Sequence record: PX880103.1
Source of the DNA: a phage
Reading direction: 5' to 3' (one strand)
DNA length: 64,000 bases
In this document: one piece after another, positions 44,602 through 45,811 of the stretch
How the letters are laid out: every line of letters begins with the position of its first letter
Numbering within the stretch: the first letter of the stretch is position 1
Made by a program: the position numbers and the translations under genes
Notes under the pieces: generated by a model
What the model saw: only the letters and a program-made list of their open reading frames with translations
Databases searched by the model: none
What the model was told of the DNA's origin: nothing

Positions 44602-44677
44602 TGGTCGAGGCAGTAGGGATCGAACCTACGACCTAGGACTTAGAAGGTCCTTGCTCTTCCTTCTGAGCTATGCCTCG
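44602..44677 (-). tRNA. tRNA-Arg (anticodon UCU)
   Basis: Hand fold: 7 bp acceptor CGAGGCA/UGCCUCG, anticodon loop CUUCUAA, T-loop UUCGAUC, encoded CCA; 76 nt. Confidence 0.85.
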
Positions 44678-44681
44678 GATT

Positions 44682-44756
44682 TGGCGGACGTGATAGGATT
44701 CGAACCTATAACCAATCGCTTAACAGGCGATCGCTCTGCCATTGAGCTACACATCC
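44682..44756 (-). tRNA. tRNA-Asn (anticodon GUU)
   Basis: Hand fold: acceptor GGAUGUG/CACGUCC, anticodon stem AUCGC/GCGAU with loop CUGUUAA, T-loop UUCGAAU, encoded CCA; 75 nt. Confidence 0.75.
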
Positions 44757-44760
44757 AAAT

Positions 44761-44847
44761 TGGTGGGGAGTGATGGAGTCGAACCACCCGAGTCGCAATG
44801 ACAATGGATTTACAGTCCACACCGCTACCTCTACGGGATAACTCCCC
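44761..44847 (-). tRNA. tRNA-Tyr (anticodon GUA), class II with long variable arm
   Basis: Acceptor GGGGAGU/ACUCCCC, anticodon loop CUGUAAA, variable arm resembles bacterial tRNA-Tyr, encoded CCA; 87 nt. Confidence 0.75.
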
Positions 44848-44856
44848 AAATTAATT

Positions 44857-44931
44857 TGGTGGCCCTGGGTGGAATTGAACCACCATCTGGCGATTATGAG
44901 TCGCTTGCTTGAACCTTCCAGCTACAGGGCC
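44857..44931 (-). tRNA. tRNA with anticodon CAU (Met, or Ile if lysidine-modified)
   Basis: Acceptor GGCCCUG/CAGGGCC, anticodon loop CUCAUAA, T-loop UUCAAUU, encoded CCA; 75 nt. Confidence 0.8.
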
Positions 44932-44939
44932 AAATTTTC

Positions 44940-45425
44940 TTATTTTATGTAATATTTATTTAAAAACTTTCTAGCTTGAGTATGGCTAACATTTATAGCG
45001 TTTGCATAATTTTTAATAAAACCTCGTTCATCCATATTAAAATTTTCTAATATTTTTAATCGTCTAGTTATCTCATCTTGACTTAAGGTACTTGCATTAT
45101 TTTTAGAAATTTTTTCTAAGGACTGTGCCGAGTGTTTTCGACCATTAAAATTAAAATTTTTAGATTTTGGAGGAAATCTAGCATTTAATCTCGCATCTTT
45201 TGTATTTTGATTATTAGTTGCGCAATATATGTTATTTAATGAATATGGTCCTTTATCGCCGAAACGGCACATGCAGTATTCATGACCCTTTCTTCCACGC
45301 TTATCATAATTTCCCGTTGATTTCCACCAATGCAACCATTCATCAAAAGTTAAATTCCATTCAATGTTTCTACGTATAGCAGAATTCCGCTGAGAAATAT
45401 ATTTTGCATAATCTTCTTTCATCAC
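44940..45425 (-). CDS. Putative HNH-family homing endonuclease-like protein embedded in the tRNA cluster
   Basis: 161 aa; GHEYCMCRFGDKGPYSLNNIYCATNNQN cysteine/Asn-rich nuclease-like core plus C-terminal helix-turn-helix-like tail; free-standing between tRNA sub-clusters. Confidence 0.45.
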   Translation of the reverse strand: MMKEDYAKYISQRNSAIRRNIEWNLTFDEWLHWWKSTGNYDKRGRKGHEYCMCRFGDKGPYSLNNIYCATNNQNTKDARLNARFPPKSKNFNFNGRKHSAQSLEKISKNNASTLSQDEITRRLKILENFNMDERGFIKNYANAINVSHTQARKFLNKYYIK

Positions 45426-45469
45426 AAATTTCTCTACTTATTCAATACACTGAGCTAAATCAGCAAAAC

Positions 45470-45559
45470 TGGCGGAGGCGATAGGATTTGAACCTATGAG
45501 TCGCCGGAGCGACTGCCGGTTTTCAAGACCGGTGCATTAAACCACTCTGCCACGCCTCC
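45470..45559 (-). tRNA. tRNA-Ser (anticodon UGA), class II
   Basis: Acceptor GGAGGCG/CGCCUCC, anticodon stem CCGGU/ACCGG with loop CUUGAAA, long variable arm, encoded CCA; 90 nt. Confidence 0.85.
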
Positions 45560-45561
45560 AG

Positions 45562-45635
45562 TCTCCGTGGCAGGATTTGAACCTACGACATTCTGCTCCC
45601 AAAGCAGACGCTCTACCAAACTGAGCTACACGGAG
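45562..45635 (-). tRNA. tRNA-Pro (anticodon UGG), CCA not encoded
   Basis: Acceptor CUCCGUG/CACGGAG, anticodon stem UCUGC/GCAGA with loop UUUGGGA, T-loop UUCAAAU; 74 nt. Confidence 0.8.
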
Positions 45636-45645
45636 TAAATTAAAT

Positions 45646-45719
45646 TGGAGCGGATAATGAGAATCGAACTCACATCATCAGATTGGAAGTCTGAGGTAAT
45701 GCCATTATACGATATCCGC
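45646..45719 (-). tRNA. tRNA-Gly (anticodon UCC)
   Basis: Acceptor GCGGAUA/UAUCCGC, anticodon loop CUUCCAA, T-loop UUCGAUU, encoded CCA; 74 nt. Confidence 0.85.
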
Positions 45720-45724
45720 AAATT

Positions 45725-45811
45725 TGGTGCGAGAAGTGGGACTCGAACCCACAAGGAAATCATTCCGCAGCATTTTAAGTGCTGTGCCTTTACCAATTTG
45801 ACCATTCTCGC
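45725..45811 (-). tRNA. tRNA-Leu (anticodon UAA), class II
   Basis: Sequence GCGAGAAUGGUCAAAUUGGUAAAGGCACAGCACUUAAAAUGCUG...CACUUCUCGCACCA; matches T4 tRNA-Leu as remembered; 87 nt. Confidence 0.85.

Follow-up and report, generated by a model that had tools for sequence, protein, structure and literature searches.

The transfer RNA (tRNA) genes of T4 (NC_000866, 70.9-72.5 kb) are arranged in the order Gln, Leu, Gly, Pro, Ser, Thr, Ile, segB, Arg, rnaD, rnaC; segB, which separates Ile from Arg, encodes a GIY-YIG endonuclease. Transcription of the entire cluster starts at a middle promoter close upstream and runs to a terminator after species I RNA (PMC2330249). T2L (AJ880101) lacks segB and its flanking tRNA genes and carries two open reading frames (ORFs) and four extra tRNA genes instead (Brok-Volchanskaya et al., NAR 2008; PMC2330249), so that its order is Gln, Leu, Gly, Pro, Ser, the trna.1 ORF, Met(CAU), Tyr, Asn, Arg, the trna.2 ORF, rnaD, rnaC. 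T6 has yet another arrangement, with Gln, Leu, Gly, a Pro/Thr hybrid, a T4-type CAU gene, Tyr and segB. Here we analyzed the tRNA cluster at 44602-45811 of a 64,000-nucleotide stretch of phage record PX880103.1 (the window, at its full length of 64 kb) and compared it with these clusters. Our overall explanation, held with high confidence, is that a T-even coliphage (Tequatrovirus) has its tRNA operon here, in the T2-type and not the T4-type form.

Running ARAGORN over the whole window returned exactly eight tRNA genes, all on the minus strand, and the same eight scored above the gathering threshold for the Rfam family RF00005. Seven of them scored 59-74 bits (E 1e-10 to 2e-14), while tRNA-Tyr, a class II tRNA with a long variable arm, scored 30.2 bits against a cut-off of 29. 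At the gathering threshold, Rfam reported only these eight tRNAs in the whole window, with no intron and no rnaC or rnaD family. In order of transcription, the genes are tRNA-Leu(UAA) at 45725-45811, identical to the T4 and T2L genes; tRNA-Gly(UCC) at 45646-45719, one nucleotide different from both; tRNA-Pro(UGG), called by ARAGORN at 45561-45635 and extending over 45562-45635 if taken to the discriminator A; tRNA-Ser(UGA) at 45470-45559; a tRNA with a CAU anticodon at 44857-44931, called Met by ARAGORN and best read as Ile2 (see below); tRNA-Tyr(GUA) at 44761-44847; tRNA-Asn(GUU) at 44682-44756, identical to the T2L gene; and tRNA-Arg(UCU) at 44602-44677, of T2-type sequence and with no relation to T4 Arg except in the T arm. 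These calls match exactly the anticodons, span and order that the initial annotation had derived by hand folding. That annotation had proposed a gene caller as the check, and ARAGORN assigned no different anticodon and did call Tyr and Asn.

All eight tRNAs have the 7-bp acceptor stem ascribed to them, and seven of the eight end in an encoded NCCA. The exception is tRNA-Pro, as the sequence at its junction with tRNA-Ser confirms: its 3' end reads CACGGAG, discriminator A, then CT, followed by the first base of tRNA-Ser. The spacers had been given as only 2 to 10 nt throughout, which holds, at 1-10 nt, inside each of two groups of four genes. It does not hold between the groups, where tRNA-Ser and the CAU tRNA are separated by 538 nt (44932-45469) containing an ORF of 160 amino acids (aa).

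The region matches 1027 phage records, nearly all of them Tequatrovirus (T-even phages of E. coli, Shigella, Yersinia and Salmonella), and the best match over 25 kb is T4_ev240 at 96.5% identity. Homology of the flanks to T4, T2L, Ec_MI-02 and T4_ev240 places the cluster in the slot between rnaC/rnaD (the e.8 side) and trna.2-trna.4/ipI/57B. The cluster of T4 occupies the same slot on the same strand, and the promoter-proximal flank, upstream of the remnant of tRNA-Gln described below, is 98.6% identical to T4. The promoter-proximal group Leu-Gly-Pro-Ser is homologous to both T4 and T2, with 95.9% identity to T4 over 45449-45814; the Leu gene and the body of Ser are identical to those of T4, Gly is nearly so, and the Pro-CT-Ser junction without a Pro CCA is also found in T4. 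In contrast, the distal group CAU-Tyr-Asn-Arg sits where T4 has Thr-Ile-segB-Arg. T4 has Gln and Thr and lacks Tyr and Asn; its CAU gene (Ile) is a different one, and its Arg(UCU) gene is unrelated in sequence. T4 also does not encode CCA for Ser, Ile and Gln, whereas the Ser CCA is encoded in the window and in T2L. The Arg(UCU) and CAU genes of the window resemble T4 Arg and Ile in little more than the anticodon and parts of the stems, which marks the distal group, at the level of sequence, as a non-homologous replacement and not a diverged copy of the T4 genes.

The likeness to T2L is closer, with 97.7% identity over 44601-45814. Four genes (Leu, Ser, CAU and Asn) are identical in the two, and the Tyr, Arg and Gly genes each differ by one nucleotide. 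T2L differs from the window in keeping tRNA-Gln, in lacking an HNH cassette present in the window, in carrying a T4-type Pro allele, in having the 351-nt trna.2 ORF between Arg and rnaD, and in the ORF between the two groups, which is frameshifted in T2 and intact in the window. Closer still in gene content are Lutter (vB_EcoM_Lutter, RefSeq NC_054924) and T4_ev240 (LR597657), which have the same eight tRNAs in the same order; in both, the HNH gene immediately precedes Leu, and Ser is separated from the CAU tRNA by the same ORF. Their overall identity to the window is only ~96-97%, and in Lutter a further ORF, of 345 nt, lies between Arg and rnaD. The slot between Arg and rnaD is itself variable: T2L, Lutter, CM8 and RB18 carry the trna.2 ORF there, while in the window rnaD adjoins tRNA-Arg directly, as in T4, which makes this another presence/absence slot of the operon.

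It had been claimed that the eight tRNAs depart from a canonical T4 set, given as Gln, Leu, Gly, Pro, Ser, Thr, Ile and Arg. That list is correct per NC_000866, and the gene calls set against the T4 annotation bear out the difference in repertoire, with Tyr and Asn present and Gln and Thr absent. The word canonical fares less well. The 330-bp CAU-Tyr-Asn-Arg block occurs in 378 phage records (at least 80% coverage) and the T4 Thr-Ile segment in 71; thus, among sequenced T4-like phages, T4 has the rarer arrangement and the window the ordinary one. The eight-tRNA set is already known and common, and this cluster variant was sequenced in 2005-2008 and published in 2008. That the repertoire could nevertheless be a new combination specific to the phage of PX880103.1 might be argued from the facts that no record of the phage collection matches the window at 99% identity or more over 25 kb and that only T4_ev240 matches the 1.8-kb region in a single uninterrupted piece. 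The identical gene order in Lutter and T4_ev240 already refutes this idea, to which we give practically no credence, and the proximal block, the distal block, the HNH cassette, the Pro allele and the ORF each occur in tens to hundreds of records. As a discovery the cluster thus carries little weight, because it re-finds a variant present in hundreds of database genomes; the useful correction is that the eight tRNAs of T4 are the minority arrangement. What we add is the HNH cassette that explains the missing Gln, the assignment of the CAU tRNA to Ile2, a quantified codon demand, and the link between the Tyr gene and a tRNA that counters a host defence.

The two absences relative to T4 differ in cause: Thr does not belong to the T2-type cluster, while Gln was destroyed by the HNH cassette. 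Homology to T4, T2L and Ec_MI-02 ends at 45814, three nucleotides past the 5' end of Leu, and restarts at 46431. Between these points lies a 616-bp cassette (45815-46430, minus strand) that, by alignment of the junctions (...TAATAATTGGGAATTA / TATTATGGATACT... and ...AATAATATAG / CGCGAGAATGG), replaces nucleotides 10-71 of tRNA-Gln, and this replacement is why Gln is absent. All that remains of the 73-nt gene is a 5' stub of its first 9 nt (TGGGAATTA, 46431-46439, minus strand, as aligned with T4, Ec_MI-02 and T4_ev240) and its last 2 nt (AG, 45813-45814). The window therefore does not begin its operon with tRNA-Gln, and the gene is also replaced in Lutter, CM8 and T4_ev240. Nearly the whole cassette (609 of 616 bp) is an ORF of 202 aa, running on the minus strand from an ATG at 46426 to a stop at 45818. 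The translation matches phrog_14736, annotated as HNH endonuclease, at E 5e-124, as well as ten other HNH PHROGs; its score against Pfam HNH is 17.2 bits, below the cut-off of 21.4, and a CxxC...DH...N...CxxCH motif is visible.

The cassette is present in 64 phage records, with identities of 95-99.8%. It occupies the same junction in Lutter, CM8 and T4_ev240, and the 61 further records are known from the cassette match only. It is absent from T4, T2L, Ec_MI-02, T6 and RB18, whose Gln gene is intact, and it is found with varied arrangements downstream, for example Leu, Gly, a SegB-like gene, Ser, Thr, Met and Arg in CM8. In its catalytic core, the protein shares 47-48% identity with the hegA HNH endonucleases of T5-like phages (BF23/T5-like). 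The closest described systems are the free-standing HNH homing endonucleases F-TflI, -II and -IV of T5, hegA of T5-like phages and mobA-E of T4. With the T5/hegA-type enzymes the window gene shares the identity of the core, a place in a tRNA gene cluster and presence or absence at a fixed site among close relatives (PMC2330249). It differs in having no similarity outside the core and in overwriting a tRNA gene where they lie between genes; the window gene is, moreover, a prediction from sequence. The cassette bears the signature of a free-standing homing endonuclease gene that erased its probable target, and the protein would be an active HNH endonuclease. For annotation, this means that the missing tRNA-Gln of ~64 genomes is caused by a mobile element.

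Self-splicing introns are a frequent location of homing endonuclease genes, and group I introns occur in bacterial tRNA genes (PMC2330249), so that one could imagine a tRNA-Gln interrupted by an intron-like element and restored by splicing. We regard this as extremely improbable and rejected a split or spliced tRNA-Gln, because 62 of its 73 nt are gone when both sides of the cassette are taken together. Furthermore, Rfam finds no intron and ARAGORN no Gln gene in the window, and the cassette is almost wholly ORF. Two side observations concern the HNH gene. The protein is at least 99% identical in ~59 Tequatrovirus records, its next relatives being at most 34% identical, a pattern that suggests recent spread. 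Since the gene's stop codon precedes the tRNA-Leu 5' end by 6 nt, RNase P processing of Leu would set the 3' end of the HNH mRNA.

The CAU tRNA had been left as Met or Ile. We conclude that it is most likely tRNA-Ile2, carrying a lysidine modification that we predict from its sequence and decoding AUA. Among the matches listed in a comparison with 5424 E. coli genomes, all of the best ones carry the annotation tRNA-Ile and show 79-82% full-length identity. The loop that holds the anticodon is 7 nt long (CUCAUAA), the anticodon arm (AGCGACTCATAATCGCC) is almost the same as the one in E. coli Ile2, and the acceptor stem, GGCCCTG/CAGGGCC, contains C4-G69 and C5-G68. The corresponding pairs of E. 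coli elongator Met are U4-A69 and A5-U68, and in our alignment the window tRNA stands closer to E. coli Ile2 than to Met or fMet. C4-G69 and C5-G68 are required by E. coli TilS (PMC1635315). With E. coli tRNA-Ile2 (ileX/ileY), in which TilS converts CAU to lysidine-AU, the window tRNA thus has in common CAU, the anticodon arm, both of these pairs and A73, while the D arm and T arm diverge. In RefSeq, this gene carries the label tRNA-Ile-CAT in both Lutter and GiZh. In addition, ATA is 3.5-fold enriched in the window over E. coli, the second most enriched codon, and ATG is not enriched (0.97).

The alternative is that the gene encodes an elongator tRNA-Met, in which case the phage would supply Met and have no AUA decoder. 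An unmodified CAU reads AUG, unmodified tRNA-Ile(CAU) acts as tRNA-Met (PMC1635315), and the gene is labelled tRNA-Met by ARAGORN and in T2L (AJ880101), Ec_MI-02, T4_ev240 and many GenBank records. The Ile-annotated E. coli matches, the Ile2-like anticodon arm, the two acceptor pairs unlike those of elongator Met, the RefSeq label and the ATA/ATG contrast all point away from Met, and we consider this alternative improbable. The gene is best read as having the same decoding role as T4 tRNA-Ile with a sequence that is not orthologous to the T4 gene. With CAU taken as Ile2, the net difference from T4 is therefore minus Gln and Thr, plus Tyr and Asn. It follows for annotation that the CAU tRNA of T2-type phages should be called Ile2, not Met.

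To relate the repertoire to translation, we compared codon use in 82 window ORFs (at least 80 aa) with that in 60 annotated E. coli genes. The window/E. coli ratios were 3.7 for AGA, 3.3 for AAT, 3.2 for TCA, 2.9 for TAT, 2.6 for GGA, 2.4 for ACA (the codon of T4 Thr), 2.25 for TTA and 1.3 for CCA, beside the 3.5 of ATA given above. Seven of the eight tRNAs read a codon among the 10 most over-used of 61 (hypergeometric P = 2e-6); with Watson-Crick codons alone, five of the eight do (P = 0.002). At the level of amino acids, demand relative to the E. coli sample was 2.06-fold for Tyr, 1.71-fold for Asn and 0.75-fold for Gln, and for this reason a gain of Tyr and Asn would be useful and a loss of Gln cheap. 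We infer that the tRNAs mainly top up the host pool for codons over-used by the A+T-rich phage (AGA, AUA, AAU, UCA, UAU, GGA and UUA), a function that fits the classical supply model for phage tRNAs.

Several points weigh against codon supply as the principal function. The codon sample is rough, setting one 64-kb window against one 50-kb E. coli region rich in ribosomal proteins. CCA, the Pro codon, is enriched only 1.3-fold. The enriched Tyr and Asn codons are U-ending and read by wobble, so that it is amino-acid demand, and not codon rarity, that makes the case for these two tRNAs. In laboratory hosts T4 can do without its tRNA genes, and the effect of the tRNAs on fitness may be small or host-dependent. 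The gene set is predicted from the DNA, and for the window phage expression, processing and modification are presumed. Finally, results with T6 tRNA-Tyr indicate that at least one such tRNA can serve another purpose.

During T6 infection, the Septu system EcB88 cleaves E. coli tRNA-Tyr, and the tRNA-Tyr expressed by T6 counters Septu (PMC13096335; Chihara et al., Nat Commun 2026). These findings raise the possibility that the window tRNAs, Tyr above all and perhaps Asn, are kept mainly against tRNA-cleaving host defences and not for codon supply, with phage tRNAs replacing or out-numbering host tRNAs destroyed in infection. Over-expressed T6 tRNA-Tyr rescues phage from Septu, a T6 mutant from which the tRNA region is missing shows greater sensitivity, and T4, a phage without tRNA-Tyr, fails to escape (PMC13096335). 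Other phage tRNAs act similarly: T5 tRNA-Tyr counters retron-Eco7, and a phage tRNA-Lys counters PrrC (PMC11555353). The window gene agrees with T6 tRNA-Tyr at 85 of 87 nt and has an identical variable arm. Relatives add tRNA-His beside Tyr and Asn. Colicin E5-type nucleases have four queuosine-tRNA targets, and these three tRNAs are among them, which would also favor a defence role.

Other observations argue against defence as the main reason for which these genes are kept. We know of no defence system that targets tRNA-Asn. The Asn gene of SP15 gave no rescue from PrrC170 (PMC11555353). The single Tyr copy of wild-type T6 was insufficient, escape needed SegB-driven amplification, and Septu cut the phage tRNA too (PMC13096335). 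No segB lies beside the window Tyr gene, and no GIY-YIG gene was found in 44000-47400 of the window; therefore, the cis amplification of T6 is not available to the window phage. Codon and amino-acid demand, moreover, would explain Tyr and Asn without recourse to defence. We thus rate defence as a possible but rather unlikely main function and retain codon supply as the favored one. The two roles are not mutually exclusive, and an anti-defence contribution of the window Tyr gene is plausible. Its near-identity to the anti-Septu gene of T6 hints at which hosts the phage may or may not overcome.

The distal group also bears on competition between phages. The SegB site is a 27-bp sequence with the consensus GGTTCRANTCC ... 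CCAR (PMC2330249). We searched the window with a 27-mer (GGTTCGAATCCTATCACGTCCGCCAAA) of our own reconstruction, built from this published consensus and the T2L Asn sequence, and obtained one exact match, at 44680-44706 on the minus strand. This stretch runs from the T arm of tRNA-Asn to CCAAA, and in the identical T2L gene it holds the preferred cleavage site of T4 SegB. Judged by this match, the preferred site is intact in the window tRNA-Asn, and exclusion by T4 SegB, as for T2L, is predicted for the window phage.

The 160-aa ORF between the two groups (44940-45422, minus strand) is the intact homologue of T2L trna.1, the ORF that is frameshifted in T2. It belongs to a PHROG of unknown function, has no significant match in Pfam, NCBIfam or PDB sequences, and shows no similarity to T4 SegB or to the window HNH protein. 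Over its last 100 residues it is similar to RB18-type SegB-like endonucleases, a likeness limited to the divergent C-terminus of these enzymes, and its few homologues combine a conserved N-terminal domain with different DNA-binding tails. From these features we propose, with low to moderate confidence, that the ORF probably encodes a homing-endonuclease-like protein that is HNH-like in its N-terminal domain and has a helix-turn-helix in its C-terminal domain.

If so, a broader account may be considered, in which selfish endonucleases largely set the tRNA repertoire of T-even phages and translational need plays the smaller part. Here the HNH cassette would be an active homing endonuclease that targets the tRNA-Gln gene it erased, and the 160-aa ORF a second, previously unclassified HNH-like endonuclease reusing a tRNA-gene-binding C-terminal module also present in SegB-like enzymes. 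The Tyr/Asn block, with His in relatives, would persist by also buffering against host tRNA-cleaving defences. Were all this true, the phage would both invade Gln-bearing relatives and fall victim to T4 SegB through its tRNA-Asn site. We offer this combined account as a tentative one that, as a whole, is doubtful.

Returning to the T2-type operon, the cluster appears to be transcribed as one unit. Upstream, reading by eye identified a probable MotA-dependent middle promoter on the minus strand at 46509-46533, with TGCTTTA at 46533-46527, a 12-nt spacer and the -10 element TATTAT at 46514-46509; the matches of a generic sigma-70 promoter scan were not above shuffled controls and were uninformative. 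Downstream of tRNA-Arg, and also on the minus strand, lie homologues of the species 2 stable RNA gene rnaD (44481-44600, by alignment to the T4 and T2L features; 85% identical to T4) and of the species 1 stable RNA gene rnaC (44336-44474; 98.6% identical to T4 rnaC). An intrinsic terminator on the same strand (44262-44285), with a 10-bp stem containing seven G-C pairs followed by TTTTT, is kept in T4, T2L and Ec_MI-02. We infer a single minus-strand operon from the promoter at ~46510-46533 to the terminator at 44262-44285, comprising the HNH gene in the wreck of tRNA-Gln, Leu-Gly-Pro-Ser, the 160-aa ORF, Ile2-Tyr-Asn-Arg, rnaD and rnaC. Its transcript would also serve as mRNA for both endonuclease-like ORFs. 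By analogy with T4, excision of the tRNAs from the precursor would fall to host RNase P together with 3' trimming enzymes, and tRNA-Pro alone would need the host CCA-adding enzyme. We attribute the differences from T4 to cassette-like turnover of the locus by recombination and by homing endonucleases that target tRNA genes.

Such turnover changes the locus by swapping whole tRNA genes or by overwriting them with homing endonuclease genes, as with HNH over Gln in the window and a SegB-like gene over Pro in RB18 and CM8, where a SegB-like endonuclease gene occupies the position of Pro. The tRNA-Pro gene of the window is a second allele, 85% identical to the gene of T4 and T2L, whose changes preserve pairing in three stems: in the acceptor stem, G-U pairs present in T4 become G-C, and the anticodon and T stems are re-paired. 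We considered this divergent allele as an unusual feature of the window and rejected the idea, because the allele occurs at 95% identity or more in ~216 phage records. Two alleles of tRNA-Pro thus circulate among T-even phages. In T6 (MH550421), the gene at 648-722 annotated as tRNA-Thr consists of a Pro 5' end (CTCCGTGTAGCTCAGT) fused to a Thr body, and its 3' acceptor strand is unpaired with the Pro-derived 5' end. It looks like the product of a Pro/Thr recombination that deleted Pro and Ser, and the hybrid gene may be non-functional.

The downstream end of the operon holds two further minor features. Within rnaC, at 44348-44358 on the minus strand, a tRNA-like T arm matches the T-arm motif perfectly (GGTTCGAATCC within CCGGGTTCGAATCCCGG), and it is the only match in the window to the SegB core motif GGTTCRANTCC outside the tRNA genes. 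Between the rnaC terminator and the e.8 side, the window has an insertion of ~660 bp relative to T4 (43596-44254). It contains an ORF of 187 aa (43604-44167, minus strand) that belongs to phrog_2280, of unknown function, and has a weak, sub-threshold Pfam match to cytochrome b562, a four-helix bundle; in other phages, a different ORF of 474 nt occupies this slot.

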